Both the position numbers and the translations under genes were made by a program. A DNA stretch of 64,000 nt, taken from positions 2,666,001-2,730,000 of the forward strand of contig OZ024747.1 in assembly GCA_964016885.1 (NCBI GenBank). The letters run 5' to 3'. The notes beneath the pieces are model-generated. The model worked only from the letters and a program-made list of their open reading frames with translations, was not told where the DNA came from and made no database searches. The DNA comes from Eledone cirrhosa. Its lineage: Eukaryota. Of the stretch, positions 2,182-61,496 are shown piece after piece. Within the stretch, counting starts at the first letter, position 1; each line of letters starts with the position of its first letter.

Positions 2182-4086
2182 ATATATATATATTTATATC
2201 TGTGTTTTTAACCGTTGGTCAATCAATGGTGCACATTGATTGCCAAATAAATTAACTATGGAGATATAAAAGATACAGAAGCGAAAACCAACAATATAGT
2301 GAGTGTATTCTGTTATTATTTCTGGCAATATTATTACAACAATATGACCCTCCTCAAGTATAACAATACATATATATATATATATATAGCATCATCATCA
2401 TATATATATAATTTCTGATGATTTAGTGTTAAAGAATAAAAACTAATGATAAAATAAAAATATATTTTAAGAAATGAGCCCCCCGAGGGTGTATGGCCCA
2501 AAGCTATACCTTATTTAGCTTATAGGTAAGTCCAGCACTGTCCGCCGAGACCCTGTCCCACATCATATGACTTGTACAAGACTTTTCTCTTTTGCTTAGG
2601 CCAATGTTAATTAAATCAGCAGTGGTGAGTGAATGAAAGAATTATTATATCAGTTCTAAGAAGCAAGAATGACAACTATGACATGAAGTTAGTTGAAGGC
2701 TAGGATTTTATGATAAGCTAACTTCTAACCTTTACAAAGACACGATTCAATTAATGTATTGCAATAAAATGAACAGATTATTATTTTCCTTCACCAAAAG
2801 CAACAGAAAGTTGTTGCATGAAATTCATTGTAACATCTGTCTAGAAATTCTTAATACTATGAAATTCATATTAATTTTCTGAGGTAGGTGGAAAAGTCTA
2901 CATTATTTTAATAATGCAACAATGCAATACCAGAAATAATGATTTAAGATGTCGTCCATTTAATATATGATTAATTACTTATACCAGTAATTTAATGTTA
3001 TTCTATTTCATTGCTCGAATCCCTTTATTAAAATTATATTTCTTTGAAAATTCTCATTGGTCTAAATATTCTCCTCAGTTCAGAAACTTAGCAGAGAATC
3101 TTCATTATCATCATCATCACGATTGTCGTTTTAATGTCTGCTTTCCCTGCTAGGAAAGTTAAACAATTAACTCCAAGTATTCAAGGAGAATGTGAAGTTT
3201 GATTGGGTTGACAGAAACCTGCTAAATAATGTTTTAAAAATACAAATAATTGCTTTTTTAGATTTACACAAAGCTAGAAATTAGGTTGGAGGTTGGATTA
3301 TTGTCAATTAAATTGACCCAAGTATTTAACTGGTACTTTATTTTATCAAACAAATATTCAAATACTCCCCATGGCATATTATCATATTTTATTGTTTTAT
3401 TGCTTTTAAAAATTACAAACTCTTATAATCTCTACCTTCTCATTTTCTACTCTATGATTTCTTTAATGGCTTTCGGCAACAATCTTTCTCATTCAACAAG
3501 AATATAAACAACAAATGGAATATATTGTAAAAACATGAAATAAGGAAGGCAAAACATATATCCTAAATTATCTGATTATTTTCATATAATCATATTCTAA
3601 CAGAAATATTGCTTTATGAAAAGTTCAGTAGCAATCTAAGGAGGTGGAATTCAATGTTTCTTTTCCTATCTTATTTTGATATATCTGTGAGGATTTTCTC
3701 AGAATCAAGAAATCTATAATGAAATCTTTAGATGATATTTTTTTTGATTTAGAAATTTCTTTATTTCATCCTTAATTTCTTTTTTAAATGTGTATTTCTT
3801 AAATTGTAAATCGATAAAAATGTAGGAAACCTATATTGTTTGTTTTTCTGAGAAAGATCTATATGTTGTGTATTTATCAACAGTGAGTTGAGCAAGTGTA
3901 CCATTTAGAAAACGGTATAGAAAATATTTCAAAATGTCATATTTAGGTAAATATTTATATATATTATAAAAAATATATAAATGGTATAACTATCTCAGAA
4001 AATATCTTGAATAATTGTACATATGTTTTTTTAAATTTCACATATGTAAAACAATATATATCAAAAGATTTTAAAACTCTGCAATG

Positions 4087-4156
<70 letters not shown>

Positions 4157-4282
4157 GTGTAGGAGGTGAGTTTTATTGTAGCACAATAAATCAATGCAAA
4201 TATCGGATAAGTAGCACTCTACATTTTGTAGGACTGGAGTATAAATAATATAAGATCAAAAGATGGTTAAAAGAGTTCCAAG

Positions 4283-4350
4283 TATTTTATTATGCACATT
4301 TCAAAAACAAATATCATCATGGGATATCTGCGTTTTCATCAGATAAAATA
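4283..4350 (-). ncRNA. Type I hammerhead ribozyme (opposite arm)
   Basis: Minus strand reads TATTTTAT-CTGATGA-AAACGCAGATATC..GATATTTGTTTTT-GAAA-TGTGCA-TA|ATAAAATA. Confidence 0.78.
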
Positions 4351-4466
4351 GGGATACATGATATGAAGCTTAAAAAACACTTGTGAATAGTGAAGTTTTA
4401 AATCATATGTTGATTTAAAACTTCACTATTCACAAGTGTTTTTTTAAGCTTCATATCATGTATCCC

Positions 4467-4538
4467 TATTTTTATCTGACGAAAACGCAAATGTCATCGC
4501 ATGATGATATTTGTTTTTGAAATGCGCATAATAAAATA
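4467..4538 (+). ncRNA. Type I hammerhead ribozyme
   Basis: TATTTTTAT-CTGACGA-[stem II GCAAATGTCATC/GATGATATTTGT]-GAAA-TGCGCA-TA|ATAAAATA; palindromic stem III ATGCGCAT; AUA cleavage after 4530. Confidence 0.82.
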
Positions 4539-4578
4539 CTTGGAACTCTTTTAACCAACTTTTGATCTTATATTATAT

Positions 4579-4610
<32 letters not shown>

Positions 4611-4919
4611 TAAGCAAAAGACCAATAGTGTTCAAAAAGCCAGTACAATGTGGTAGAAAAATACGAAGAGCAAAGGAAGACAAATAAAACAAAACAGTAA
4701 TCTTTTATGCAGTGTATTTTACATGATATTTCAGGTTTATTACACATACTTTGCAATCTGATTTAGACCATATTCAAAGTTACTGCTCTTCTAGACAGGT
4801 CAGGAATGATCACACATTGTTCATGTGCTCCAACGTTTGGCATGGATTTTAACAGCTGAATTTCCTGTTCACCAGCAACACCTTACACTGTGTATTGGAT
4901 GCATTATGGTTTAAATACA

Positions 4920-14350: not shown

Positions 14351-15472
14351 TTAGTTCAGCTCACTGTAAACTAATCTTCTACTGTACCACACAAGCTCTG
14401 TTACCTTACACTAACTTCTAGTATTATCTTCAAATTTACTTTCCAGCAGCATGCACCTAAATTCTTTAATCTTACCATAATTCATTGCTTAAATGTAATA
14501 GATTTTGTTCGATTTAATCCTTCACCCAGTTTTCCTTGCTGAATATTGATACATTATAGAAAGATTTGTTAGTATAAACAGTAGGCAATGTATGGAGGTA
14601 GTGTATGTAACATGTGTCTGTGTCTGTGTATGTATGGTTAAATACTTAGTTATAAAACCTTGAAATATGTAAGAAAACAAAACAAAACCAACTATTAAAA
14701 ACTAACTGTCTATCATTCTTTATTCTGACAAAACATTTTCATTTTTATTTCATATCTACTTATAAGCTTGCTTGCTTTTCTCAAAATGTTTCAGTCAATT
14801 TCTATGGCATTTCTTCAAAATATTCACAATTTCAATTCAATTAGAGAACATGTCTGTCTCTTGCAGCACTACATTCGGTCAACAGTATTATAACATATGG
14901 TAGTACTTCTTACTTAGGCTTCTGTTCATTATGCATTTGTAATGCAAAGTGTTATTTTACACACCTTCCTACATTCCACCAGCATTCTTTCTAGCTAGCT
15001 ACTTAGGTTGCTTTCCTTCTGTAATACTTATCTTTTCCGGTTGGCTGAATTAAACACACATGAATGATCAGGAAAAAATTATCCAATGTCACTGCATATT
15101 TTTGTGTTAGACTATAGGCTCTGTTGGTTATAAGGTTAAATGTCTTCTATTATAGTTTTTTTTCACTTTGTGAGGGAATCTAATTTATTGACTTTCCAAG
15201 AAAGAAGGCAGCTAATTAGTTTTAATTTATCAAAATACTTCACTGTTTATTCTCTTATTTCTATAGCTTTCCCCTACATTAGCTTTGCTGCAATATTCTT
15301 CATCCTATAACAAGTTACAATGCTCTTGTAAAACTAAAGTATATATATATATATAGAGAGAGAGACATGTATGTGTGTATATATATATATATATATGCAC
15401 ATACATGGCTATATATAATATATATACATAGATATATATTTTTATATATGTAATGTAAATGCATATATGTGA

Positions 15473-15806
15473 ATCATCATCGTCATCATCATCATTTTAC
15501 GTCCACTTTTCCCTGCTTGCAAGGGTGGGACAGGAACTGATTCTGGCTTGATTTCTACAGCTGGATTCCCTTCCTAACACCAACCTCATTTACAGTGAGT
15601 GCTGGGTGGTTTTTGCCGTGGCACCTCCACGACCACTTTGCAGTGGAATGATAGGGACCCCGATCCCTATAATCTCATTTCTACAGCTGAGTAAACTGGA
15701 GCAATGTGTCTTGCTCAAGAAAACAACACATCACCCGGTCTGAGAATTGAACTCACAACCTTTCGATTGCAAGGCCAATGCTCTAACCACTAAGCCATGT
15801 GCCTCC
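15473..15806 (-). mobile_element. tRNA-derived SINE with CORE-like domain and RTE-type 3' end
   Basis: A box TGGCTTAGTGG, B box GAGTTCAATTC, CTTGAGCAAGACAC core, GGACGTAAAA(TGA)n tail. Confidence 0.88.
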
Positions 15807-17834
15807 ATGATTATATATTTATTTATTTATTTATTTATTTAACCTGGGTTATTAAGACAACATAATTTTAATCAAAATACATAAGTTCAGTCATAGATTT
15901 CAATTTTGCTAATTTTTTGTTCAGTCTTAGTGAATAGGTTAAGTGATATAACTATATATAAAATGATAGTCAGAATATATAAACTATTAACTAGAGCAAT
16001 GTTCTCATATGGTACACCATGACAGCGAACCAGGAAGGCTGCAAAAATAATAAAATTATATTTTAAATATTAGAAAAAATACAAACTGGAATTCTCAATA
16101 TAAAACATTTTTGAAACTCACAAACATTAAATACAAACAAAAAAGAAAGAGATATGCTTCATCATATTGAAAATTAAATGAAGGGAAGGTATTTTTAACT
16201 TGGATATATCTAGATATAGAGAGCATCATCCAAAAAATATCAAGCTTATGTTTCTTATTGATAACTACACTTCATTTAATGCTGAATAAAGAAATAAGTA
16301 CTTAATCATTTTCTGCAGGTTATAGCTTAGATTATAAATATCCTTTTTAATAGATTTTTCTTTCTGTTCAAACTACATCCACTAAAATATTTTTATTTGC
16401 TCTAAAGTATGCTGCTAATGAAAATATCTTTAAGAAGAACTGTTCAAGAGGTTGGGAGATGAGTTAGGAATGTTCACTGTATGATAATCATTCTACACAC
16501 AGTTCTAGATGAAAGGCCCCACCGTCATAATCTGTCTCATTAGAGATAAGAAAGATTCCGGCAATTATCCAAAAAATATATCCCACAGTAGACACACATT
16601 GATTAATAAATATGTGAAGGTCTCAGGGGTCTTGGGATAGAAAATGAAAATCCTCTTAGGGAAGGTGATGAAGGAGGTTAAACAGTTGATGGTAATGAAT
16701 TTCATTATTTCAATAAATGCATGACAAAATGCCAACATTTAGCAAAAATCTCAGATCTATGTTTTTAAGTTCTTAGAATTACGATGGTTTTAAAGAACGA
16801 AAGTCTTCTCAGACATTCATACATTATAATGTCCATTCTCATATTTATATTTTATATTTTATATTTGCTGCATGGAACCTTGGGCAAATGTCTATTGCTA
16901 TAGTCTCAGGCTGGCCAATGCCTTGTTAACAGAGTTTCGTACATGGAGACTACTAAAACCTATCATCTATCTATCTGTCCATCCATCTGTATGTCTGCAT
17001 CTATGTATTTGTGTATGTTAGGTTGCTCTTCAGCACTATTGGTAACATGTAACCCAGTACAAACTGTGCATAGTTGAGTCATCAGCGACTAAACCAGCAA
17101 CCCCACCAGGGTGAGGAGGGTGATTTTGGACACCCTGCATAATTAAAAACAAAAATTGTCAAAGAGCAGAGAAATTCAGGAGAGTCAACAGCCATCCAAT
17201 AAAATATATTTTAAGGCGGCAGTGAAGTGAGCGTCCCCTACTCTTAGTTAGGACATCTCTCTAGGAGAAGGTCACTCTGATATAAAACCTGAGATTTTGT
17301 TTGTATCCAATGAAGTAGACTGGTTCTACTTTTTGAGTGAATGCATCCGATGTTCAGAGAGTGGGATTGGCTCCATGCAAAGCCTTTTCTCACTTAAAAA
17401 AAGCTTCAAGCACAGGCATCGCTTTATATGTGACATCTTTTGTGCTGCATGGCATGGCAAGTCAAAGGCAAGTCCCTAACAGGACTAAAAAGCCATGTCT
17501 GTGAGGCTTATGCTTAACTATCAAGCAATTTCATTACTCAAAATCGAGTTGCAGCCATTATATATATGTATATATATGGTCATGTGATGCACATGGACAA
17601 TGAGTGGTTGATGAAGAAATGCTAGGATATCCTAGTGAAAGGAAGCTGCAATAGAGGTAGACCAAGAAAGACCTGGGCAGATGTAATGTGAGCTGATCTG
17701 GAATTGCTAAGACTGGCAGAGGAGATGACGAAGGACCATGACAAGTGGAGAGGTGCCATGCTGAGAAGGACTCATCCAACCCATGCAAGTATGGAAAAGC
17801 AGATGTAAAAACGATAACAATGATTTTGATGGTG

Positions 17835-20330: not shown

Positions 20331-23300
20331 GGTTGAACAATGAAGGTCAGATTCAGTGTAAACACCTATATATATATATATACACTGTGATATTATATAA
20401 AGCAGACCTATGTACATTTGTGATATACTTCAATATGAAATTGTTCTTTGAATATTTTACTATCAGTGGCACATGTTAAGAGGAAAAAAAAGGAATTTTC
20501 TATTTATCTGTTCAAAATATGTGATGTTATCAAACATTTTCCTTTTAATAGAGGAATACTCATTTAAACCATTTTAGTTGACAGTTTTCTTCTTTCTTTC
20601 TTCCTCTACTTTTTCTTTCTTCTCTTCTTTTCTTCTTTCTGCCTTTCTCCTTTCTTTCTTTATGTATTTCTTTCTTATTATTTGTTTTTCTTTTGTCTTT
20701 TCTGCTCGTCTTTCTTTCCTTCCCCCTTTCCTTCTCTTGATTATCCCAAGTTTACAGATTCAAATATGATGAGTTGTAAACCTAAATAAGACATTCATAA
20801 TTACATCAGTTTAATTTGATGTCACAGATCATCAACATACAAGCTGAACCATCTCAATCATCACAATAACAAATACATTACATTTCTATGGATTTATAAC
20901 CACTCACTTTTCACTTATTATTTGCATTGTTTCAGTTCTCTTTTAGATTTGTCTCTTGTTAAATATGTGGTGCTGATAAGAGGAATAAATTTAATGGTCA
21001 TTCTATCATTCTAGTTTAGAATTTGTATTAAGCTTAGAAGAATCATTATTCCTTCTGGTAAGTAATGTCTTGCTATATTAAAGGTAATGTTCTCTTCTTC
21101 AACAAATGACCACCTTAAACAGATTGAGAGTTATTTATGTAATAGTAAACATCTTTCCAAAAACTAAGTGGCTTTAGCTATCTATCAAATCATCACGCCA
21201 TATTAAAGTATTATTATTTTTTATTATTAAGGCATAATGAATAAGAAATTATACTCACACATACGCACGCACACATACACACTCATAAACTATACACATG
21301 TGAAGAAGAAAACACTGTTTTTTTGCCCTTAAACTATTCCAATAAAACTTTTCTATAAACATAAACATTGTTATCTATTTTTTCTTGTCAGATTTAAACA
21401 GATTCCATCACAGTAATTTCTCTAATTTTATTATGAAGAATATTTAAGATTATAAGATTTGGTTTTATTATTATAGTTCTCAGCTTTCTAATACCTTGAT
21501 AATGTTTTAAAGCATTGTACAAATATTAAGCAAATATAACTTGGAGCCAAAAATGAAGAAATATTTTAAACAAAAGACAAACAATTACAGCTTCTTAACA
21601 TTGTTAAGCAACGTTCTGGCTCTCTCATTTGTTTAGCTGACTACTTACAAAGAGAAAAGAGGGTTTTGCTTCTAGTTAAATAGTTTCCTGAATATAACAT
21701 GTAGTTGAATGAGCTAGGGAATAGATAAAGAAAGAAAATGATTAACAAATTATTAATTTATTTCATTGCTTCCTTTTATGTTGAGTAGTTTGAAATATTT
21801 ACAAATTTCAGAAACAAGGATTTAATCTTATACACAAAATACTCATAAATAAATCACTCTAATTTTTGACGAACCAGTCATTAATATAAATCTTATTTAT
21901 TAAATCATTATTATCATCATCATCTTCATCATTATCATTGTCACTGCCATCATCATAATCATCATCATGGTTTTTATTTTCATCATAATTATCATCAAAT
22001 TCATCACCTTTGCAAATTCATCACCTATTCATAAATATTGTCATCATCATTGTCATCATCCTTATGATTATTATATTGTGTTCAGTGTCACCTTAATAAC
22101 CATCATTGTTGTCTTAGTATTCACCATCACCACTGTCACCAACGCCACCACTACCACCAACATCACCACCAACTCACTGTCAACATCGATGATGATGATA
22201 TATATTGCTAACACATTACCGAGTGTATAGGTTTCTTTGTGAACATACATGTCTTTTTATGTTGTGTTTATTGATTCTTTCAAGAAATTAGTATGTTCAT
22301 ATTGTGCTAAAAGATATTATGAGATTCTTGTTTCTAGACATGACATAAACTTGACAGAAGGAATAGTATTTCTTGCTTGATAGTAAAACGCATCAAAAAG
22401 GTCTCCTCTTTGTTCTTGTGATCAGAAGAAAAATAGAACTCGCTATAAAAGATGCACAAGAGGAATGTACTCTATAAAAGCAAGTATTATTTTTATATAT
22501 TGATTTCTCTCTTTGAAATTTTATTTCATTTGTTAAGATTAAAGAATATCAATTTTATTGGTAACATTGATTTCCATTTGAAATCCTACTGTGATATGTA
22601 GCACAAATTTCTATAGGTTTATAAGACTTTTCTTTCTCATTCCACCTTAAGAGCCTCTATTGGTCATACTTTAGAAAATGGCTGATCTACAATAGATTTT
22701 TCCTAAGCACCGAGAAATGCTTAGCTTTTTGAAAGATAAATCTATTTTACCTTTATCAAAGATATATATATATATACACACACATACACACATATATATA
22801 TATGTGTATGTATACATATATACACAACGCACACACACATATATATATAATTTTAATTCTACAATAAGCTAGTAGATAATTACAGTGAAGTTTTAAAATA
22901 AAATATAATTGAATAATTATTTTTTGTTGTTGCCAGCCTATGCTCTTTTTAACAAAATGTTATTTCATAAAACTATATTCAAGTAACATAATAAAATTGG
23001 GAAATCTTGCTGTAATGTATAATTATATATTTACAACACTAAATAGAATGGCAAAGATTGATTTTATTTTTGGACAGTTAAATTTTGTCATTCAATATTA
23101 TATGTTAAACCTTTAACAGTGTTATATAGTTCATTCAGTTTGAAGCGTTGTATTGATATATACAGTTTGTAATTCATCAAGGAATGCATATTACATGAAC
23201 AATTTCTAAATGTCAGTGTATCTGACATGATATTGAACACTGATGCAGATTATCCAAGTGAAATCTCAAATTCTAGGATTTCACCAATTATCTGTTTATC

Positions 23301-27718: not shown

Positions 27719-28087
<369 letters not shown>

Positions 28088-28106: not shown

Positions 28107-28298
28107 CAATGATTAAATAAATGGAAACTATATTTATAAAACCATATTTATTCTATTATATATATTTCAAGGGTACCCTTGAAATATATATAATAGAATA
28201 AATATGGTTTTATAAATATAGTTTCCATTTATTTAATATCATTGAATACTTACTCCAGAAATCTGTCGAGTGCTCTGAATCAGTTATAAACATCTACA
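28107..28298 (+). mobile_element. Small fold-back element, family B
   Basis: Near-perfect palindrome 28107-28244 centred on GGGTACCC, containing GAAA-TATA-TA (possible 3' half of a hammerhead); tail ends CATCTACA. Confidence 0.7.
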
Positions 28299-28315: not shown

Positions 28316-28487
28316 ATATTTAATATAGAAAGGCTTCTACAGGACTTCCTGATGATTTCTCCAGAATTAAACAGTTCTAGTCCTGTAGAAGCCTTTCTAT
28401 ATTAAATATTTATTCTCAGCTTTGTATTGAGTACCTTACTTATTGTGGTTACCCCCTCCTCCCCCGATTGAACCCGGGATAAACACT

Positions 28488-28490
<3 letters not shown>
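28316..28490 (+). mobile_element. Small fold-back element, family C, with degenerate hammerhead core
   Basis: Arms 28316-28346 and 28379-28409 enclose CTGATGA..TAAACAGTT; the tail is homologous to 30430-30490. Confidence 0.7.
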
Positions 28491-29165: not shown

Positions 29166-29737
29166 AGTTTTCTATTACTGGATGTATTCCTGTCACTATC
29201 CACTTTACAGAGAATACTGGATACTTTTTAGTATATCATCAATGCTTGAAAAGTTGTTGTGGTCTTGACACAACAAAGCAGTCCTCTTGACTCATGTTTA
29301 TCCTGATCTCTACAGCTGGATACTTGATGTGAATACTTACAGTGAATACTTGATGGCTCTTTTGTGACATCAACAATAGAGAGGTTGGCTTGTTATAACT
29401 GAAGTGGCATCTCAATTTATTTTGTGTCATGGTTCTACTGCAAATATAGTTGCCACATTGCAGATAACTATATTAATATTTGAATATATCAGGTAAAGTT
29501 CCTGTGGAGATGGAAAAGGTAAACAAAAGTGCTTGCAGGCAATCAAATTCTGCAATTATTATATGAATGCCTTATGAAAGATGCATGGTTCAAGTCCTTG
29601 CAGACATCTCTGTCCATTTTCTTCTATCACCCGAGACACTTTACTTGATTTATTCAACTATTATTCATAGTTATCTGCATTGTATATATTTTCAAATATC
29701 AATTTTCCAAATGATATATATATATATATATATATAT

Positions 29738-30042
29738 ATCATCATTTTCATCATTTCATTTTACGTCCGCTTTTTCTCTGCTTGCAAGGGTGGGACGGGA
29801 ACTGATTCTGGCTTGATTTCTACAACTGGATGCCCTTCCTAACACCAACCTCATTTACAGTGAGTGGTGGGTGCTTTTTTGCCGTGGCACATCCATGACC
29901 ACTTTGCAGTGGAATGGACCCCAGTGGAATGGACCCCAGTCCCTATCATCTCATTTCTACGTCTTGCTCAAGGAAACAACACATCACCTGGTCTGAGAAC
30001 CTTTCGATTGCAAGGCCAATGCTCTAAACACTAAGCCATGTG

Positions 30043-30045
<3 letters not shown>
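29738..30045 (-). mobile_element. Same SINE family, internally deleted
   Basis: Homologous to 15473-15806, with deletions and a short internal duplication. Confidence 0.85.
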
Positions 30046-30096
<51 letters not shown>

Positions 30097-30097
<1 letters not shown>

Positions 30098-30490
30098 TGG
30101 TTCAATCGGGGGTAACCACAGTAAGTGAGGCACTCAATACATAGAAGATTTAAATATTTAATATAGAAATGTCTTCTACAGAACTAGAACTGTTTCTTTC
30201 GATGGAAATCATCAGGAAGCCCTGGAGGTCATTGACTAATGAATTTAAAGAATGGGGATTCTTTAAATCCATCAGCCAATGACCTCCCCCTATCCCAATC
30301 ACCACTGTCTCCTATCAACAGAAAATATATAAATACCACCATATCACATTAACAGTTGTCTTTTCTGATGATTTTCTTCGAATGAAACAGTTCTAGTGCT
30401 GTAGAAGCCATTTCTATATTAAATATTTATACTCTGATATGTATTGAGTATCTTACTTACTGTGGGGTTACCTCCGATTGAACCCTGGGT
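30097..30490. mobile_element. Inverted pair of family C ends with internal hairpin
   Basis: About 30097-30215 (minus) mirrors about 30365-30490 (plus); both have CTGATGA..GAAACAGTT; extra hairpin at 30224-30287; (TA)n/(CA)n flanks. Confidence 0.7.
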
Positions 30491-33659: not shown

Positions 33660-33859
33660 NNNNNNNNNNNNNNNNNNNNNNNNNNNNNNNNNNNNNNNNN
33701 NNNNNNNNNNNNNNNNNNNNNNNNNNNNNNNNNNNNNNNNNNNNNNNNNNNNNNNNNNNNNNNNNNNNNNNNNNNNNNNNNNNNNNNNNNNNNNNNNNNN
33801 NNNNNNNNNNNNNNNNNNNNNNNNNNNNNNNNNNNNNNNNNNNNNNNNNNNNNNNNNNN
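33660..33859. other. Assembly gap (200 N)
   Basis: Run of exactly 200 N, a typical fixed-size scaffolding gap. Confidence 1.
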
Positions 33860-34841: not shown

Positions 34842-37250
34842 ATGATGATAAAACTTTGTATAATATTATTTATTCTTGGAGAATCAATGTCTGTAGATGT
34901 TATCTTCATGTGTCAGAGGGTCATAGTCCAGGTACATTTATAGGGAGCATTGCAGATGAAACTCACTTCTGGACAGTATGCCTTCTCAAGAACATGGCTC
35001 TGTTACATTCAGCCAATTACATGAAAGTAGAAGTGAAGATTTTGAACTGTTTAATATAACAAACTCAGGAAAGATGTACACAACACAAGTTTTAGATGCA
35101 GAATCTCTTTGTAAATATAACACAGAATGTTTCAAGATGATAGAAATTGCAGTGAGGCACGAGGAATCTTTTGTCCGGATTTTGGAAATTAAAATAATTA
35201 TTGATGATATTAATGACAATGCTCCTGAATTCTCCAGCAAACAATCAAACTCCAATTTTCAGAAACTGACAGAGAAGGCTTTATGAAATCAATACCAAAT
35301 TCTGTAGACAAAGACGTTAGTACACTATATAACCAGATTAATTATCAGCTTTATAAGAACCCAGATGAACCTTTTTCCCTATCTGTTAATAAGAAAGTTG
35401 ATGGAACAGCTAAAATTGGTATCATGTTAGAAGAAGCTCTTGATAGAGAACTAAAAGATAGTTATTCCCTGCAGGTCATTGCTAGAGATGGTGGATCACC
35501 ACCAAAAGAAGGAATTTTAGATATACAAATATCGGTTACAGATGAAAATGATAATTCTCCAGCCTTTTCTCAGGATATATATAATGTCTCAATTAATAAC
35601 GGTTTTCGAAAAGATGTTCCAGTTTTTGTTTTGCATGCAACAGACCTAGACTCAGGAAAAAACGGGGAAATTTTATACCAATTTGGCTCAAAAACCTCTC
35701 CATTAGCAAAATCCCATTTTACAATAAATAAGAGAACTGGAGATATTTTCCAATCAAGAACACATTATGGTGAAAGGAAACAAATGTATAAGCTTTATAT
35801 TGAAGCTATCGATAATGGCAATCCTCCTTTAAGTTCAACTGCTATTGTTTTGATAAACATATTGAATGAAGAAAATAATGCTCCACGAATAGATATGAAA
35901 TTTGTATCAAAATTTGAAGGTAACAGAGTTACAATATCTGAAGGAGTAAAAGTTGGCAGTTTCATTGCCTATGTGAAAGTTATAGATAATGATGTTGGTT
36001 TAAATGGAGAGGTTTCCTGTCAACTTCAACATGATAAATTGGAACTCAGAAGTTTGGGAACAAACAAATATAAAGTAGTCATCAAGAACACAGTAAACAG
36101 AGAAAGTCAAAGTCAACTTAATTTTGCAGTTGAGTGTGAAGACAGAGGATTGCCTCCATTATTAACCAAAAGAATGTTTACTGTCCAAATAAAAGATGTC
36201 AATGACATACAGCCACACTTTACTCGTGAGGTTTTCAAATTTTTAACTTATGAAAATGAGAAACCAAATTTTCCAATTGGCCTAATTAATGCAACTGACC
36301 AAGACCAGGGATCTGGTGGTCAGCTTTCCTTCTCTTTGCTGAATGACCACGGTCATATTTTACCATTTAAAATATCCAATTTTGGGTTTATTGCAACAAC
36401 TCAAATGCTTGACCGAGAACAACAAGACATCTATAAATTTAAAGTTTTAGTGAAGGATAATGGCATTCCTCCATTAAGTAATACTGCCACTGTAATTGTT
36501 GAAGTTATGGATAAGAATGACAATGCCCCATATTTTACATTTCCAAGTGTTAGCCCTTTCACTTTAGACGTCCACTATCATCCACAGAGTAATAATGACA
36601 TCACAACATTGAGAGCTTCTGATAGAGACAGCCATGTTAATGCTTTCCTCAAATATGAAATACTTAGCGGAAATGGAAAACAATTATTTTCAATAAATCC
36701 TTACACTGGTACTTTGTCTTATTACCGAACAGTTTACCAAAATGATGCTGGATTATATGATCTTCAGTTTGTTGTCAAAGACAGTGGTACACCAGTTTTA
36801 TCAGCAACAACGACTCTGTCTTTGACATTGACTGTCAGTAACAATACATCTAAAATGTTTACAGCTGTAGGCACAGAAGCTGATAAAAAGATACATTTTA
36901 ATTTAGTTGCTGTTATAGTCATTGCGGCTGTCATTGTATCTGTTGCTATTGTGGTATCCATTGCAATATGTATCATTCAGAAAAACAACCAAAGAAAATT
37001 CCTCTATACTAATGATGTAGATGGGAATAATAAGTTCGTTGAAGAGAGGAGACCATCAGAATATGTCTCTGAAAGTGTTTCTCCTCAGTATGATATTTCT
37101 ATTACAATGGTATCTGACAACAGCATGAAAAGAAACACACAAACAGCTACACTTAAAAAAGAATCACTTCCCAGACATAAACCTGGACAAAATTGGAAAA
37201 ATTCCCCAACAGGAATATTACACCAAAATATTATCCAAGGGACGCATCAG
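34842..37250 (+). CDS. Protocadherin main coding exon (signal peptide, 6 EC repeats, TM, start of cytoplasmic tail), broken by three 1-nt deletions (assembly error or young pseudogene)
   Basis: ATG at 34842 gives MMIKLCIILFILGESMS-VDVIF. Joining frames at about 34905, 34967 and 35243 gives HVSEGHSPGTFIGSIA..LDAESLCKYNTEC..DINDNAPEF, then ORF 35283 with LDRE, DENDNSPAF, ATDLDSG, DVNDIQP and DKNDNAPYF cadherin motifs and TM FNLVAVIVIAAVIVSVAIVVSIAICII. Donor CAG|GTAAGT at 37250/37251 (phase 0). About 804 codons once repaired. Confidence 0.95.
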
Positions 37251-39896
37251 GTAAGTTTTTACATTTATAGTTTCTCTTACAAGTATGTTGTTACTTAATC
37301 AATATCAATGAGAAAAACTCTACTAAATCAGAACTTGGAATTAATAGAAATTTGGTTGAAATCCAACTTAAATACATAGCTTCAATACTAATACAATTTG
37401 TTCAGAAAGTGATTCCTATTTCTTGAAATATTCTCATGTCACCTGATATAAATACTTGAGTGTTCTGAGTTAGCCACTCTTACAGTCTCACATGATTTCT
37501 CTAGAAGAAAAACTATTCAAGGAAAACACTAAAATATAAAAAAAGAAGTTTGCCAGGAGAATACTAAGAATCTGTAATTGAATAGTTCCATGAGATGTGT
37601 TGGAGATCATTTTATATATTCTTCTAACCTAATATTTCTTTCAGTTATTCTAATTATCTTTATTCAATTTGTGTCATTAGATTATTTAACATCAGAAAAA
37701 ACTTTCAAGAATTTAATTATTTCATTTAAACTGAGTTAAAAAAAATTTGCAAAAGTATTTGAGAAAATTCTCAGTTCAGATTCAGAATACAAGGCCTGGT
37801 AATTGCAACATTGTACAAAGACAGACCATTGCAAAAGGATGTTAAGGTGTGATTGATAGTTTTCAACAAATTTATCATATCAATTGATAATAGAAAAAAA
37901 AAAAGCTACAGAGAGAATCAAGTTACAAGAAGCAATAGTAAAAAAAATAAGAAATAAATTTAATCAAATATCAGTAAAGATATAGAGGCTATAGTTAAGT
38001 GATAGTGACATTTGACAGAAGGGAAATGTGTCATGTTACTAAACAGTGCTGATATCATGTCTTTATCTGTCCATTAGTGTTGAAACTGGGCTTATTGATT
38101 GATTAATAAACATTCCTTGCTTCCTCCTGTTTTCACACATCCAAGTGTGTTTTACAATGTAACTCCTAATTAATTGATTCAGTCTTTCAGATAGAAGTCT
38201 AAACATTTGGATTATAGAATTACCAGCATTGTATTGAAACCTTGATTAACATCTTCTCTCCTACTGTGACTCTTAGAATGTAGTTGCTTGCTTTTTAATG
38301 CATTTTTACTTCTTTTATACATATTATCTGATTCACTATACAAAGAGGGACATGCCCTTGATTAGATACAATTGACAAGTAGATTTTCACAAACACACAT
38401 ACAAACATACATATACATATATAAATACACATACACATATACATACACATATACTAATCACAGTCACAGATACTCACACAAGTAACAAGTAGAAATAAAG
38501 TACAGTATCAGAATAAATGTTAAAGAGTTAATATCACAAATAATAATCAAGGAAAAATCTCATTGTCTGAAAGAGAAATGGAACTGCTGTGAGGGGAAAA
38601 ACTTAATAGCATGATTAATGTGAAAAAGAGATGGTATATGTCGAGAACGGTTTTATAGAGAATTGCATGGAGATAGAATAAACAGAACATATTTTGTAAT
38701 AACATCTGACTTCATGACTATTTTAGTGTTATCATTGAGTAAATTGAAATATAAGTAACTTCCTTTACATTTGTATTACTGGCTTAATATCAATGTATCT
38801 GAAATATTTCAGGACTATATAAATAGTATTAGTTGAAGTGAACAAAGAAAGATTATAAATATTTATGGAGGAAAATATACTTTTCTTTTTATTTACCTTC
38901 ATTTCAGCCTTCAAACTATCAAATGTAGGTTTTCATAACAGCATGGTTGTATCACTGTTTATAAATAAAGTATTTCATTTTCAAATGCCAGTGAAGATTT
39001 AGTGTAAGAATCTTAACATGATTGTGCCAATATTTAATACGATGAACTCACTATTTCTTTTAGAAATACCACTCAGGAATTGGTGTTAGATTATTTCCTG
39101 TGGACATCTAATGAGCAGACATTAACAGTAAGAAACTTCTTAGTAAATGAATCTAACAAGAATTTCACAATTCCTAATAACTATTTTATTATTTGTGTTA
39201 TATAAATCTAGAACATTTAAATCCCACACAGGGATTCAGGTAGTACACCAGACCAGGACCCAGAGAACCTAGGATGGGCCAGTGAATATCTAATAACTCC
39301 CATCCCAAAAAGAATATCTTTGGCCCTCCTGAGTTTTGAGATAAGCTGAATCTGCAGTAATGACACCTAAAACGGTTGTATTCCACCTTGCAAAGTTTCA
39401 CTTGGAGGCTCTTACTGGACATTGTAATAAGGCAAACAAGAACTGTTGTTTTATAAACTGGATTTAAAAGTACATAAATCACTAAGAACTCTGTGGGCTA
39501 ATAAATGTTGGTATTTAGCTCTAGACTTACCCTTTCAGAGCAGAACCACAAGGAAAACTTCCAAAATATTTGGCCTAGTCTCACATCTGGATGAATTAAT
39601 CCTTTTGATAACAACCTAACTGAAACTGGTCCTGGTTATGTGTAACAAATCCACCTATTTTAAATGCTTGCTATATATATATCAAGAATGGTGTACTCAT
39701 GTGTGAAGATGCTATAAAACAGCTTATAAAATTGAGTAAAGATCCTTAGAGATAGAAAAGAAGTTGCCATCAGCTGCTGAGAGGAACTGAACCCCATATT
39801 TCCCAGATACCAGCTAGGCACTTTAAACCATTAAGCTAAGGGACTTTGGCAACTCTTAAATTAGATTGCTGAATCACAGCTTTTAAATGTAAACAA

Positions 39897-40783: not shown

Positions 40784-41136
40784 TTAGGTAAGGCGGGTCT
40801 TCTCTGTTACTGAGTACCGCCAAAGGTCTCGGTCCAGTGACATTGTCTTGGAGAGGTGTAAGTGTGTGATGTCGGAGTTTATCAGCTCGTCCCAGGTTTT
40901 TCTAGGTCTGCCTATTCCGTGACTACCGTCTATCTTTATTGCCCTGCACTTTGTTATACAGCTATCGACTTTCATGCGCATCACGTGTCCATACCAACGT
41001 AGCCTTCTCTCGAGTAAACAACATCTGATCCCTCTTATCTCTAATTTTTTCCTTAGTTCGTTTATGCTTTGCCGTTCACGTATATTACTGTTACACATCC
41101 AGCGGAGCATGCAAGCTTCGTTCCTCTCTAGTCTGC

Positions 41137-41138
<2 letters not shown>
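40784..41138 (-). mobile_element. RTE-clade LINE 3' ORF fragment
   Basis: MLRWMC..RRLRWYGHVMRM..GRPRKTW C-terminal motifs. Related pieces at 7265-7520(-), 17578-17830(+), 41600-41900(-) and 42990-43290(+). Confidence 0.85.
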
Positions 41139-41176
<38 letters not shown>

Positions 41177-41404
41177 TGTATATATGTATATATATATATA
41201 TATATTTATTAAAATAACAGATTAAAGTTTAAGCAAAGAATCGGTGCTTTCACCCTTAACGGGATCTTCTGAAACTAAAAAAGTCAATCTGTGAACGCAG
41301 AAGTAAACATTTAAAAAAACGTTGCAACCGAAGGAAGACAGGAAGATGATACTTTGGTTCGTGGAAATGTTCCCTGGCAAAGAACGGAATATATATATAT
41401 ATAT

Positions 41405-41560
41405 ATAGGAAAAGAGTCAGAACCCCGACGACAGAGCTCAAGCCGATTCAACAGCTATTTCTGGGGTCTGACTCTTTTCCTATTACCCACTCTACTACCC
41501 AAAGTATCGAGTACTCTGGTCTGTTATGGTCACCTGGTTCCTTATCACACTTCCTTCATT
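41405..41560 (+). mobile_element. Small fold-back element, family A
   Basis: Arms ATAGGAAAAGAGTCAGAACCCC and GGGGTCTGACTCTTTTCCTAT, tail TACCCACTCTACTACC..CTTCCTTCATT, (TA)n flanks. Confidence 0.75.
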
Positions 41561-42176
41561 ATATATATATACATACATCATCTTCTGTTACTTCTTCACC
41601 CAAAGTTTCCCATCTATACATATCACATGTCCATACCAGCATGGCCTTCTCTCTTGCACATTACATCTGATTCCTCTTAATTCATCCATGCATACTAACA
41701 TTACACACCCAATGGAGCATGCTTGCTTCATTTCTCTCTGTATATTCTCAGCATTTAATGCCTGTGCCTCACAGGCATGCAACATCATACTTTTCATGGA
41801 GGCATCATACAATCTACCATTTGCAAATAAAAAATCCCTTTGTTGTAAATAGAATTAGTAGCTCCCTGTTTTTATTCTAACTATTATGCTCTCAGAGCAA
41901 CCTTAAACTACCAACCACTTCTGTGGTGCCTTCCTATGATTGAAAAACGTTTATTCCACTGCTGGTCTTACTATCCACTACACCATTGCATCCACTACAT
42001 GCAAAATCTATCTTTACAGTTATATCCTCATCATGATCATCATCAACATTTTACATGTGTGTATGTGTGTGTTTAGCTGGAAATTTAACCATTCTAGTTA
42101 AAATTAACGATGCCATTCCTTATGTATAAACATTTGAATAATACAAAAGCTGCAAGCAAGATTGTTGCTGAAACAG

Positions 42177-44783: not shown

Positions 44784-44832
<49 letters not shown>

Positions 44833-44833
44833 T

Positions 44834-45150
44834 GGAGGCACATTGGCCTTGCAATCAAAAGGTTGTGAGTTCAATTCTCAGACCGGCTGATGTGTTGTTT
44901 CCTTGAGCAAGACACTTTATTTCACATTGCTCCAGTTTACTCACCTGTAGAAATGAGATGATAGGGACTGGGGTCCCTATCATTCCACTGCAAAGTGGTC
45001 GTGGAGGTGCCACGGCAATAAAGCACCCAGCACTCACTGTAAATGAGGTTGGTGTTAGGAAGGGCATCCAGCTGTAGAAATCAAGCCAGAATCAGTTCCC
45101 ATCCCACCCTTGCAAGCAGGGAAAAGCGGACGTAAAATGAACTGATGATG
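44834..45150 (+). mobile_element. Same SINE family, full length
   Basis: GGAGGCACAT head, B box, CCTTGAGCAAGACACTTT, (TGA)n tail. Confidence 0.88.
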
Positions 45151-45186
<36 letters not shown>

Positions 45187-45545: not shown

Positions 45546-46521
45546 ATAAAATATTAAACAAATAATGAACAAACAATTCCTTATATTAAACAAAAAAAGT
45601 TCACTATTTAACGATCGTTTCTAGGGCATATATGTGCTATAATTGGTATGCATATTTAACAGATCTATGTACAAAATTATACAAAATTATACAAATTATC
45701 AAGATTAAATATACATACCTAACTCATATATACGCCGTCTTCAGAAATAATGAAGTATATTTATTGATAATAACAACAATTCAAAATATCAGTTCAAAAT
45801 TGACCAATGAAAACACAAAGGGTTAAAAAGCAGTTTGGTGTGTGTATATACATGTAAAACCCTACACACATTTTACAATAATGTGTGTATAATATGTATG
45901 TGCATACTAAAAAGATGGATGCAAATAAAAAATTTCAAGGTTAATATCTCTGTAAGCTTAATGCGCTGATAAGATACGCAATGATACTTATGTAGTCAAG
46001 CATATAAATATATTTTTTTCATACTCACACATATCAGTATAATCACACATACATGTGCGTATATATATAAATATACACATAACCACGAACACACAAACAC
46101 ACACACACCCCCCACTCACATTTATATATGTGGATATAAAATCATAAGCAAATAGAAATTAAGTCACTCACATAAACACACTGGTACACACATTTCAAGA
46201 TCAAGATACAGAAATTAGGTGGGAGGGGGGGGGAGGGGTCAGTATTAGGTTGTCAGACCAGACAGCCTAATATAAATGTATCTATAAATTATGAAAAATA
46301 AAAAAATAAGAACAATAAAATATATTACATAATATAATGTACATACGCATACAGATATACATACACATACGTACATGTACGCGCACATAGAGATATCTAC
46401 ACATACATACATACACACATACCTATACTGTCCTACACACACATACATTTACACGAACATACACATACACATATAAAAAGATAAAAATACGGACACACAC
46501 ACGCGCAACACATACACACAT

Positions 46522-46566
<45 letters not shown>

Positions 46567-46673
46567 TATACACACACACACATAGACTCATATATATATA
46601 CATACACATACATATACTTATACATAAACATATATATCCCACACTCATACCACCATGAAAACACATACAAACA
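45546..46673 (-). repeat. Left arm of 1128-bp inverted repeat
   Basis: Reverse complement of 50012-51139. All mirrored landmarks sum to 96685 (e.g. identical ORFs 45632-45826 and 50859-51053; 46245-46448 and 50237-50440). Confidence 0.97.
45600..45754 (-). ncRNA. Mirror copy of the type I hammerhead ribozyme
   Basis: Reverse complement of 50931-51085 in the left arm. Confidence 0.8.
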
Positions 46674-46727
46674 ACTTCTACTAAAAATACTGAAAACATA
46701 CAGCATAATATTACCAACAAACACCAA

Positions 46728-47699
46728 ATGAAAGGTACACACCTAAATGCCACCCACAGTATACCCCAAAATACTAAATCTTCTAATATAAAGTATAGTA
46801 ACCCTCAAAAAACTACTCATCATAAGACTATAATAAATATTAATAATAAAACTCCTAATAAAAAAGATAAAACACCTAAATCTACAAATATAACTAAAAA
46901 TAGTTGTGGTGAGATCATTAACATTATTCCTCCTAGTAAAAATCATGATACAACATATAAAAATAATAAAAATAATAAACAACATAGAAACCGTAATAGA
47001 CGAGTTACTTGGTATAATGCTCCTTTTAATTTACAAGTTAAGGATAATATTGCTAAAAAATTTTTTTATATCCTTGAGAAAAACTTCCCGCCAAACCACA
47101 AATACCATCAAATCTTAAATAGGTCTACAGTTAAATTCTCATATTCTACAACAAATAACATAAAACAAAATATAAGTGCATATAATGCATATAAATGTAA
47201 GAAAACTATAAGTATACCACCAGTACATCAAATTAACAATAATATCTCCTCAAATACAGAATTAACGAAAGGATGTAACTGTAGAAACAAAACAAACTGC
47301 CCATTAAAAGGGAATTGTCTTGTTAACAACATAGTCTATAAATGTAATGTTAAAACTAAAGATTCTATTTGCTCATATATAGGAGCTACCTCTAACAATT
47401 TTAAGACAAGGTATAATACCCACAAACATAGCTTTAAAAATGCCGCACTGGCTAATACAACATCTCTAGCAGAAAAAATCAATAGTTATAAAAATAAAAA
47501 TATAAAATATGATTTGACCTGGAGTGTGCTCAAAAGAGCCACCCCTTATCAAAATAATAGAAAGGAATGTAGATTATGTTCCCAAGAACTATTTGAAATA
47601 ATGAAGTCTAGTGATATCTTATTAAATAAAAGACAGGAATTAATTATATCGTGTAATCATAAACTAAAAAAAACATTTAAATATTATAAACCTAATTAA
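46728..47699 (+). CDS. GIY-YIG endonuclease region of a Penelope-like element
   Basis: 323-aa ORF with [72 protein letters not shown] and SCNH. The frame is open back to the arm junction at 46674. No YxDD RT core. Confidence 0.9.
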
Positions 47700-49522
47700 T
47701 AACATTATTCTAGAATTTAATTTAATTTAAATGTTAGTTAACCTATAAATTTAATTTAATTAATATTTTATTACAGATGAGAAAATATTATGTAATCATT
47801 AATTTTGAAAAACCTTTAAATATTACTAATATATATTCAGTAATTTAATTTATAGATTAATTTTAACTTATTTTAACCTTTTATTATAATTTTTTAATTT
47901 AGTTTAACCTTTTATTATAAAATTTTTTTTATTATAATTCTTTTACAGATAAAATATAACAAAATAATATCATGTATCCTATGACGGAGAAAGAATTTTT
48001 AGTATTATTGACCTAATTAATATACATTTTGGAAATATATTTATTATTTGGTTTTAGCTTTAATCAACCTAAAACTTTAATTTTAATTTTAATTTGCTTA
48101 AAATTAGTATCCTTGTACAGACGAATTGCAGAATTTCATGTAATCATAGAATGGGAGGTGTTTTTGGATATATACCTAGTTAATATATTCTGTGCAAATT
48201 TTTTGGAAAAGATATGTATATCTATATGTATATGTATATGTGTGTATTGTATGTGTATCTGTATGTATATTTATGTGACTATATATGTATGTACGTGTGT
48301 ATATATATGTATATATATATATATATATATGTGTATGTATATGTATATGTATGTGTATGTGTATGTATATGTATGTGTATGCGTATTAATTTTGATTTTT
48401 ATTTGCATATAATTATATTATGCTATTGATGAAATACAATATCTGCTTTATGTATTGTATACCTAATTAACATATACTAATTAACATATACTATTGAAAT
48501 AAATATATAATTTTTAACTTAGTTTACATATAATTTATATGCTACTACCGATGTAATACTTTATTTTATTTTTATTTGGGTTTCTTTTCCCTATTATTAA
48601 CTTTAATTTAGTTATAATGTAATTAATAATCTACTACTGTTTGACTTCATAATTCTGCTTCAAATATTATAAACCTAACTAATTTACACCTTGGAAATCA
48701 ATATGTTGACTATCTTTGGTTTAGTTGACATATGATTAATGGTATACTTTTTTATTTTGTGATGCATAGATTTCGTATTTCCTAGCATTGAAAATATGTA
48801 AGAACATACATTGAATTAAGATTTGGAAAATATTATAGGTTTCTTGAAACATATATTTACTTTGATCCCCTTCTCCAAACCCCCCCCTTTCCCCCATACT
48901 ATTATCATCTGTTTTTGTAAGTGTATATGTATGAATATATGGGTAGATGGGTGTCTATATAGTTTTTTTTTTTTGGTATTTATTTCTAGATATAAAAATA
49001 CATATATGAGCATGTAAATATGAATGTAAGATTGAGTGTGTATATATGATTGTACATACATATGTATGTATATGTATGTATATATATGTATTATATATGT
49101 ACGTGTATGTGAATGTGTGGTATATATATGTGTAGGTATATGTATATATGTGTGCGTATGTGTATGCTTGTATATAGGAATATATATGTGTGTATATATG
49201 TATATATGTATATGCGTGTTTGCATGTATGTGTATATGGGTTCTGTATATATTTGTATGTCTCTCTATTTATATGTTTATCTTCGTATCTATGTGATATA
49301 TGTGTGTGTGTGTGCATGTATGCATATGTATGTGTTTGTGTGTGTTTGTATGTGTGTATGTATGTATATGTATGTATTTGCGCACACTCACATACACATA
49401 TATATATATATATATATATATATGTGAGTGTGTATGTGTGTCTGTATGTGTGTGCGTGTGTATATATGTGTATATATATGTATATATATGTGTATGTATG
49501 TGTATGTGTGTGTATATAGATA

Positions 49523-50011: not shown

Positions 50012-50118
50012 TGTTTGTATGTGTTTTCATGGTGGTATGAGTGTGGGATATATATGTTTATGTATAAGTATATGTATGTGTATGTATATATATATGAGTC
50101 TATGTGTGTGTGTGTATA

Positions 50119-50163
<45 letters not shown>

Positions 50164-51136
50164 ATGTGTGTATGTGTTGCGCGTGTGTGTGTCCGTATTT
50201 TTATCTTTTTATATGTGTATGTGTATGTTCGTGTAAATGTATGTGTGTGTAGGACAGTATAGGTATGTGTGTATGTATGTATGTGTAGATATCTCTATGT
50301 GCGCGTACATGTACGTATGTGTATGTATATCTGTATGCGTATGTACATTATATTATGTAATATATTTTATTGTTCTTATTTTTTTATTTTTCATAATTTA
50401 TAGATACATTTATATTAGGCTGTCTGGTCTGACAACCTAATACTGACCCCTCCCCCCCCCTCCCACCTAATTTCTGTATCTTGATCTTGAAATGTGTGTA
50501 CCAGTGTGTTTATGTGAGTGACTTAATTTCTATTTGCTTATGATTTTATATCCACATATATAAATGTGAGTGGGGGGTGTGTGTGTGTTTGTGTGTTCGT
50601 GGTTATGTGTATATTTATATATATACGCACATGTATGTGTGATTATACTGATATGTGTGAGTATGAAAAAAATATATTTATATGCTTGACTACATAAGTA
50701 TCATTGCGTATCTTATCAGCGCATTAAGCTTACAGAGATATTAACCTTGAAATTTTTTATTTGCATCCATCTTTTTAGTATGCACATACATATTATACAC
50801 ACATTATTGTAAAATGTGTGTAGGGTTTTACATGTATATACACACACCAAACTGCTTTTTAACCCTTTGTGTTTTCATTGGTCAATTTTGAACTGATATT
50901 TTGAATTGTTGTTATTATCAATAAATATACTTCATTATTTCTGAAGACGGCGTATATATGAGTTAGGTATGTATATTTAATCTTGATAATTTGTATAATT
51001 TTGTATAATTTTGTACATAGATCTGTTAAATATGCATACCAATTATAGCACATATATGCCCTAGAAACGATCGTTAAATAGTGAACTTTTTTTGTTTAAT
51101 ATAAGGAATTGTTTGTTCATTATTTGTTTAATATTT

Positions 51137-51139
<3 letters not shown>
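50012..51139 (+). repeat. Right arm of 1128-bp inverted repeat
   Basis: Reverse complement of 45546-46673; ends directly in (TA)n. Confidence 0.97.
50931..51085 (+). ncRNA. Type I hammerhead ribozyme with extended stem II
   Basis: Stem I TTCATTATTT/AAATAGTGAA; CTGAAGA at 50941-50947; stem II GGCGTATAT/ATATATGCC plus GGTATGTATATTTAA/TTAAATATGCATACC; GAAAC-GATC-GTT with predicted cleavage after 51075. Confidence 0.8.
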
Positions 51140-54203: not shown

Positions 54204-54395
54204 ATAGGAAAAGAGTCAGGACCCCGATGGCTGAGCTCCAGCTGTTTCAACAGCTGCATTCAGATCTAGCTGCCAAAACGGTTGGAGCTCAGCCGTTGGG
54301 GTCCTGACTCTTTTCCTATTACCCACTCTACTACCGTAAGCATTGAGTACTCTGGTGTGTTATGGTCCACCTGGTTTCTTACTACACTTTCTTTG

Positions 54396-54398
<3 letters not shown>
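54204..54398 (+). mobile_element. Small fold-back element, family A
   Basis: Arms 54204-54240 and 54283-54319, same family tail to 54398, (TA)n flanks. Confidence 0.75.
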
Positions 54399-54429
<31 letters not shown>

Positions 54430-54436
<7 letters not shown>

Positions 54437-55618
54437 CACATTTATTTTAAATTTATCAGTTCATATAATTAAATCAACAAAGTATATATTTATTTTATTA
54501 CACAAGCTTATCAAAAGCAAACAAATTGTAGAACTCGGTAGACTCAAACACCTTCTTTATCTGAGGTCCAACAAAAATTCCACCTTTGATTTTGGCCTCA
54601 GATAACTTGGGGAAGAACTCAAGAAGGGACTTAAAAGGGGCTGATTCTTGGTTGAGAGCCTTCACAAACTGCTTCATCAACCCCGACTTAATGTACAGTG
54701 GCAGCATGAGCACAATCCTGGGATCAACCAGTGGCTCCCACATGACGTTCCGGGTCCCAACTACAAATTCTATTCGCTGCTCCCAGTTCTTTCTTTTGTA
54801 GTGGTCAGAGGTGGCTCTGCTGTCCCAAAGGCAGAGGAAGCTTTGGAATTTGATAAAGCCTCCTTGGAGTCCAAGCAGGAAAGCCACCATCTTGAAGTCT
54901 CCAATGATTTCCCAATTGTACTAGTTGTATTGCAGAGCTTCCAAGGGGACTTTCACACTGTAGTAATCTTCCTTCAGGCAGACTGAATGAGCTAGGGGCA
55001 GTGTCGGGAACTTGTTTCCATTGTGGAGGAGGACAGCATTCAAACTTGTGGTGGAGCTGTTTATAAATAGCTGCCACTCCTTGGGCACAAACGGCATCCG
55101 AATAATGTCAAACAGTCCAGGTATGTCATGGCAGAAGCAAAGGCCATCCCTAAGAATGTAAAAGCCTGAGAAAGGTTTGTGTCAACTTCTCTGACTTGTC
55201 ACCTGCACTTCCTCCTTGATCAAGTTCCACTTCTTCATCCTGGAGACGAATGCTTAAAACACAACTTACCCTTTATTCAGGGTGCGAAAATCCAGTATCA
55301 ATAAATCTCTTTAATCCACTTTTTAACAATTTTATACTTTATTGCACTTTTATAATTTTCTTTAGGTATTACTCTTTATTTTATAATTTTAATTTAACCT
55401 GAAACATATAAAAAAAATCATTTAACATAAGCAAATTAAACTTACATACAATGTAAAATCCAGCATAAAAATATTCTAGTGAATAGCTTAGAATTTTTAC
55501 AAACCCAAACTTTTAACTGTTTAATAGCAATTTTTTTTATTTATTTGGGACCTAAGCAACACAAAAAAAGTGATTACAAGCCAGGAACAGAGAAAAAAAA
55601 TGTTTTTGTTACACGGTA
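54430..55618 (-). mobile_element. Decayed DNA transposon, Chapaev3-like (CMC superfamily)
   Basis: EWQLFINSS..AVLLHNGNKFPTLPLAHSV..IIGDFKMVAFLLGLQGG..FLCLWDSRA..PLYIKSGLMKQFVKAL..FPKLSEAKIKGGIFVGPQI with an internal stop; terminus-like (T)ACCGTGTAACAAAAA at about 55618. Family assignment from memory. Confidence 0.75.
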
Positions 55619-55720
55619 TAATTTAATAATATTCAATAGGATTCATATATTTATTAATTAAACTTTATATTAACAAATCACCCAAATAAAAATAAATAAA
55701 TAGTAGTGTGTTGTCTTAAG

Positions 55721-60967: not shown

Positions 60968-61057
<90 letters not shown>

Positions 61058-61114
61058 CAGAGAGAGAGAAACAAATATAGAGAAAAAAAGAGAGTGAGAC
61101 AGATATATATATAT

Positions 61115-61450: not shown

Positions 61451-61496
<46 letters not shown>

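Follow-up and report, generated by a model that had tools for sequence, protein, structure and literature searches.

The window, by which we mean the whole 64-kb stretch of octopus DNA that was analysed, is AT-rich and microsatellite-rich; at 33660-33859 the assembly is interrupted by a gap of 200 N. A large protocadherin exon is encoded at 35229-37298 on the plus strand (Pfam Cadherin, E 3.5e-66); its closest relatives carry the names Octopus sinensis, at 95% identity, and Argonauta, at 89%, which places the host among the octopods. A dispersed repeat of about 380 bp, probably a tRNA-derived SINE, includes a tRNA-like match (29.9 bits) at 61116-61179 and has relatives at 15340-15841, 29714-30095, 44796-45186 and 60626-61481; the pieces 60626-60982 and 61103-61453 are mutually inverted. 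Furthermore, a tandem array with a 19-bp period and internal dyad symmetry was found at 55700-56350. Transposon-like frames without a Pfam match were seen by eye on the minus strand at 40784-41221 (LINE 3' end) and 54498-54920 (DNA transposon).

The feature under study lies between a (TA)n microsatellite at 4086..4157 and a (TA)n-rich microsatellite at 4576..4611, inside which a target-site duplication is indiscernible. Comparison of 4240-4581 with its own opposite strand (blastn) gave an inverted repeat with 92.2% identity over 347 columns. Its arms, 4240-4405 (166 nt) and 4411-4581 (171 nt), are 92% identical and enclose a 5-nt hairpin loop at 4406..4410; the palindrome itself, at 4246-4575, measures 330 bp. 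The hairpin had a predicted fold energy of -227.2 kcal/mol (z -37.5), and none of 100 shuffled sequences was equally stable. The initial annotation had described a palindrome of about 330 bp with a 5-nt loop, and the self-comparison, the fold and the length all agreed. Its range, 4158..4576, was right for the palindrome but takes in 82 nt (4158-4239) without a mirror, though these nucleotides are part of the element. Matches to miRNA families of Rfam were below gathering, reflect the hairpin only and were rejected.

The left arm (4240..4405, minus strand) is an inverted copy of an element end, and self-blastn and the arm alignment showed its 5' end to be 6 nt shorter than that of the right copy. 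The right copy (4405..4575, plus strand) begins at the constant 5' start of its family, as given by joints in sequencing contigs of run X1, and extends to a tail-less 3' end, past which contigs continue into (TA)n. Its start at 4405 overlaps the left arm by 1 nt, and the hairpin loop represents its first bases, as judged from the fold and the joints. The 82-nt tail (4158..4239, minus strand) is a one-sided 3' extension of the left copy, for which three small stem-loops were predicted. As the initial annotation had noted, the arms diverge, including the variable core position and stem II of the hammerheads: global alignment gave six substitutions, one of which falls in the TA flank, and three indels (1, 1 and 3 nt), and position N7 is U in the left arm and C in the right arm.

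Hammerhead motifs of the two arms

A type I hammerhead descriptor matched the minus strand at 4350-4283 and the plus strand at 4470-4536, so that each hammerhead reads outward from the palindrome centre. The left motif occupies 4283..4350 (minus strand, predicted cut after 4291) and the right motif 4467..4538 (plus strand, predicted cut after 4530); the coordinates first given for the latter hold, with one bulged U. With a stricter descriptor there were exactly two matches in 64 kb, compared with a mean of 0.003 per null window in 300 local Markov nulls (one match in 1 of 300, two in none), the thresholds having been chosen after the motif was seen and the two matches being mirror copies rather than independent.

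Both arms contain all 12 invariant core letters (CUGANGA, GAAA and UH in order) and three stems with the ends in stem I, as in type I hammerheads. The left hammerhead has a stem I of 8 bp, N7=U, a 3-nt deletion in stem II and a 2-bp stem III with a near-palindromic loop. The right hammerhead has a stem I of 6 bp (8 with the bulge), the core at 4476-4482 with N7=C, stem II at 4483-4518, GAAA at 4519-4522 and a palindromic stem III at 4522-4529. Stem III thus consists of 2 bp and a 4-nt loop. Together these make up a palindrome of 8 nt, perfect on the right and with two G-U wobbles on the left, through which two molecules could pair, as is typical of PLE-type dimeric hammerheads (PLE, Penelope-like element). 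Predicted self-duplex energies of stem III were -10.5 (right), -6.0 (left) and -8.6 kcal/mol (cross). The motif is a dimer-type hammerhead and agrees with the variants described for PLEs, in which helix III is small and palindromic (PMC4209133). In the published cases described in these sources, dimer-dependent hammerheads cleaved weakly or only with protein help (PMC4209133, PMC11167929).

The pair 10.1-11.1 is A-U in both arms instead of the canonical G-C; in other copies, G at 10.1 accounts for 46% of the X1 depth at 4335 and faces U (G-U). Hammerhead families of Rfam gave no match at gathering in the whole window, nor at E up to 10 in 4000-4800 or in the right arm alone. The Infernal search with Rfam Hammerhead_1 that had been proposed as a check was therefore negative, a result still compatible with a variant hammerhead. 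The claim of a full type I hammerhead in each arm stood for the intact cores, but "full" did not hold, given the 2-bp stem III, the A-U pair at 10.1-11.1 and the lack of an Rfam match.

Variation among the other copies was compared with the stems. All eight common variants (at least 5% of X1 depth) at paired stem positions keep pairing. They represent seven distinct sites among the 40 of 53 variant rows covered; 23 of 42 possible transitions keep the pair, and seven of seven has a probability of about 0.015 by hand calculation. Within the same 40 rows the pair-keeping variants were all one-sided, with no compensatory double change. Common X1 variants miss the 12 invariant core sites, but this lacks significance, because with 24 of about 253 sites variable only about 1 such change would be expected; one X6 contig changes the invariant G12. 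At 4540/4281 both arms have a minority letter, found in about 18% of X1 depth, which on inspection disrupts a distal extension of stem I.

In the folding model, the hammerhead fold lies 7-8 kcal/mol above the best monomer fold, and the active stem I register had a probability of at most 0.007 in isolated arms of 196-253 nt. In the full hairpin context, the pairing probability of ribozyme stems I and II was 0.0. A read-through transcript of either strand holds one ribozyme plus its antisense, as the initial annotation correctly stated. However, the competition between cleavage and hairpin formation that it deduced from this would hardly occur, because the antisense arm is transcribed first on either strand and stems I and II of the ribozyme do not form in the predicted full fold. 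In any RNA that reads through the palindrome, the hairpin is thus predicted to sequester the ribozyme.

Repeat family and related insertions

Contigs of four of 11 sequencing runs aligned to 4152-4590 at 80% likeness: 5,068 in X1, which may be the window's own sample, 61 in X5, 35 in X6 and 6 in X8, the last being mostly weak and not counted as a holder. The X1 contigs comprised 1,110 at 99% likeness or above, 1,827 at 95-99%, 1,718 at 90-95% and 413 below. X1 and X5 contigs covered all 30 bins, tail included. The 11 runs listed as containing the sequence included no RNA run, which carries no information on expression. The palindrome therefore belongs to a large dispersed family common to at least three organisms. 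Since family contigs covered the tail at arm-like depth in X1, X5 and X6, the tail belongs to the element. Both 3' ends run into TA, with a summed depth of about 401,000 at 4158 (tail) and about 462,000 at 4575 (tail-less), although summed contig depth is not copy number and the contigs are short. One X6 copy runs into (CA)n.

Pattern scans for the family gave no matches in metagenome contigs and prokaryote genomes. Within the window, a weak likeness of 30 nt (83%, E 0.007) to the palindrome centre was found at 22884-22913 and is possibly an old fragment.

Forty-three joints between inverted copies were found in all; 15 were listed, 14 of them in X1. Among these 14, the joint started at 4174, 4183, 4185, 4188, 4189, 4193, 4196, 4251, 4258, 4280, 4347, 4348, 4352 and 4364, and it ended at 4405 in 11, at 4404 in two and at 4399 in one. 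Hence one copy starts at a fixed base and its mirror copy is cut anywhere. The joints share 0-3 letters that fit both sides. The mirror copy in the window is only 6 nt short, which accounts for the near-perfect palindrome. The second hammerhead was absent from 10 of the 14 listed X1 joints, kept its core and a partial stem I in two and was whole in two, so the pairing of ribozymes is a by-product of insertion.

The family is a dispersed multi-copy repeat with 5' truncation, an inverted truncated copy adjoining the 5' end, a tail at one end and a microsatellite or AT-rich target, here (TA)n on both sides, all of which are features of Penelope-like insertions. Seventeen X1 contigs, together with some in X6 and X8, extend upstream of 4403-4404 with mutually similar sequence and point to a longer parent. 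None of the insertions in the 14 listed X1 joints, or in the 12 further rows listed out of 25, began where the ribozyme is predicted to cut (4531, mirror 4290). The base at 4405 follows TC, as in the Pol II initiator consensus. Initiator-like starts have been reported in pLTRs (PMC3846280, PMC2377424), and a putative Pol II initiator-like start at 4405 is a lead only.

Five further head-to-head stumps of two other families lie in (TA)n in the 64-kb window, four of them with a tail on one arm; with the palindrome at 4158-4575, five of six insertions in the window have a tail on one arm only. The second family carries a hammerhead-like motif with a 4-bp stem III and a short stem II. At 30090-30219 (minus) and 30362-30490 (plus) two copies stand head to head, separated by 143 nt; the minus one is intact, and stem II of the plus one is weak. 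At 28316-28490 a short tail-less inverted piece joins a tailed direct copy; this third copy of the family has lost G12. The third family, in which no hammerhead is visible, forms palindromes at 27965-28085, 41390-41578 and 54204-54410, with three different centres. All of them lie in (TA)n, and in each a single arm bears a tail of about 70 nt. In the palindrome at 54204, most differences between the arms are in the inner part. An AT-rich palindrome of 140 bp (97%) at 28107-28244 lies next to two of these stumps.

At 46659-47699 on the plus strand lies a 3' relic of a PLE ORF with a CxC...C linker and the YIG, R...H, CxxC and C.H motifs of a C-terminal GIY-YIG domain. By its linker it is Neptune/Nematis-like; a Pfam match was absent, and its nearest Atlas clusters are molluscan, one of them named GIY-YIG at 23% of members. 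Between the relic and the palindrome family just a 13-nt match at E 1 was found, which is at chance level. The relic lies within an inverted repeat of 1,128 bp (45546-46673 and 50012-51139) that is 100% identical and is either very young or an assembly artefact. Just past the GIY-YIG stop, at 47770-47835 (plus), a decayed hammerhead-like motif (one core change, stem II, GAAA) was spotted by eye, the descriptors having missed it. No ORF with RT and GIY-YIG flanked by the hammerhead repeat was found in the 64-kb window, and no ORF of at least 120 aa runs through the hammerhead or the tail, where short frames close early as judged by eye.

Origin of the double hammerhead

We interpret the feature, with a probability of about 0.8, as an ORF-less PLE stump of octopods, in which two hammerhead-bearing pLTR-type ends stand head to head in (TA)n with a tail at one end. 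Within the range of head-to-head, 5'-truncated Penelope-like insertions, whose architecture has already been published, the double hammerhead lies at the long end. PLE insertions often show an inverted 5'-truncated copy, a one-sided tail and a (TA)n bias (PMC8557442), and among inverted arrangements head-to-head is the commonest (PMC3846280). Dual min-HHRs on opposite strands, 100-700 bp apart, were described in Schistosoma and ascribed to truncated PLEs (PMC4209133). The initial annotation missed this origin: the feature is a Penelope-type stump, and the second ribozyme is absent from most listed joints.

In the proposed mechanism, the element RNA would begin at the base matching 4405, and a PLE RT/GIY-YIG protein would cut the (TA)n target. 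cDNA would initiate inside the RNA at two sites, one per tail end; one cDNA would reach the RNA 5' end, the other would stop at a variable place, and the two would be joined at their far ends over 0-3 shared letters. For the insertion in the window, the second cDNA would have stopped just 6 nt short, leaving a near-perfect palindrome with two ribozymes. Because the predicted cut site lies 126 nt downstream of the start of the full copy, we infer that the template was uncleaved. For a Poseidon protein, cutting and extension of both strands have been reported, with two internal RT starts that delimit the tail, an uncleaved template RNA and a hammerhead that depends on the protein (PMC11167929). 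The octopus ribozyme would be passenger cargo of the element end, and any activity it has may require either dimerization via its palindromic stem III or the help of a protein.

As described for PLEs with an inverted pLTR (Penelope/Poseidon, Neptune and Naiad; PMC3846280, PMC8557442, PMC2377424), the octopus stump combines direct and inverted head-to-head copies, a 5'-shorter inverted copy, a tail at one end, a microsatellite target and a hammerhead within the repeat. However, it has no ORF between the repeats, and its 82-nt tail, compared with the published 30-40 nt, speaks against the PLE reading. The min-HHRs of Cervera and de la Pena 2014 (PMC4209133) share the type I topology, a long stem II, a tiny palindromic stem III, genome-wide copies and opposite-strand pairs 100-700 bp apart, the octopus cores being 134 nt apart. 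They differ in a conserved G-C at 10.1-11.1, where the octopus family has A-U or G-U, and the octopus stem II, which contains an internal mismatch, can be as long as 15 bp. Poseidon PAc of Anolis (Frangieh et al. 2024, PMC11167929) has the same order of 5' start, hammerhead and tail, and its insertions likewise end at two tail boundaries with an apparently uncleaved template. The PAc ORF begins inside the hammerhead and includes the tail, whereas no such ORF is evident in the octopus stump (PMC11167929); that paper does not discuss head-to-head products (PMC11167929).

It is unlikely that the unit is instead a hammerhead element in its own right, non-autonomous and SINE- or retrozyme-like, which would span about 253 nt between 4405 and the end of the tail. 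Having lost its own ORF-bearing parent, it would be mobilized in trans by PLE proteins, and the insertion chemistry would be the same and only its status different. The 5' start fixed in most joints, the very many copies and the lack of a visible ORF in the unit would suit such an element, and animal retrozymes have been proposed as PLE derivatives (10.64898/2026.07.22.740005). Animal non-LTR retrozymes are likewise non-coding, on a scale of 150-400 nt, PLE-related and equipped with a type I hammerhead, but they are head-to-tail tandems, and the octopus element is head-to-head and dispersed (10.64898/2026.07.22.740005). The tandem that defines them is absent here, the window holding only an inverted pair, and the similar loose ends before 4403-4404 in X1, X6 and X8 argue for a longer parent. 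Less probable still is a palindrome that is itself the mobile, selected unit, a MITE-like element or hairpin-RNA gene whose antisense arm regulates the ribozyme. Such a unit would explain the near-perfect 166-bp hairpin with both cores intact, the near-full palindromes among other copies (two joint records) and the wide sharing of both arm variants, as whole-unit amplification would give. Against it, the second ribozyme is missing from the larger part of the listed joints, the junctions all differ, and the summed depth is 35,000 at 4401 compared with about 500,000 at 4407-4436. The one-sided 82-nt end misfits terminal inverted repeats, and a fixed internal start with a variable mirror arm is unlike a MITE or TIR DNA transposon. 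A fold-back chimera made from one arm during assembly is extremely improbable, although among the contigs listed none covers the whole stretch or the exact junction of the window (the best run holds 0.62 of the words). The arms differ at nine places, several of them variants common to many other copies, the tail is present on one arm only, and the same architecture occurs in other copies, organisms and families. Contigs from two organisms span the palindrome centre with near-palindromic junctions (the same two joint records), so the earlier argument from arm divergence against an assembly artefact holds as far as can be told.

Within the Penelope-like reading, the two arms could arise by self-priming fold-back or from two separate cDNAs, for which a dimeric PLE protein would use both strands of a single cut as primers and a different RNA molecule as template for each. 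We propose the latter for each insertion tentatively, at somewhat less than even odds. Self-priming has been proposed for inverted PLE ends (PMC3846280), and two-strand extension was demonstrated in vitro, without a link to inversions (PMC11167929). The arms share five minority letters, indicating the same sub-lineage, yet differ in stem II variants. The summed depth was about 63,000-66,000 for the left stem II type, about 107,000-207,000 for the right type and about 36,000 for N7=C, these values being obtained by subtraction. They rest on summed depth of contigs that are short and often ambiguously placed, 802 of them fitting at two positions. Most single contigs have a depth of 3-17, and the variant at 4558 is near-private (about 700). 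Fold-back gives identical arms; arms with different common variants favour a pair of templates belonging to one sub-lineage. The same arm pattern would also result if the palindrome had been amplified as a whole or had undergone gene conversion after insertion.

Our literature search did not find an octopus example of the paired-hammerhead PLE arrangement. A 2026 paper on O. vulgaris repeats lists Penelope families, its main text not mentioning hammerheads, ribozymes or palindromes; the octopus hammerhead family may already be catalogued in an O. vulgaris repeat library. The feature is an ordinary element with a ribozyme of known class in a new host family, and no purpose-built RNA switch. If the two-template proposal is true, this octopus family, whose short two-armed copies number in the thousands and permit arm-by-arm typing, would offer a genome-scale test of how head-to-head PLE inversions arise. 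Coleoids show heavy A-to-I editing. Abundant long perfect hairpins would, if read through, feed double-stranded RNA to ADAR and small-RNA pathways.
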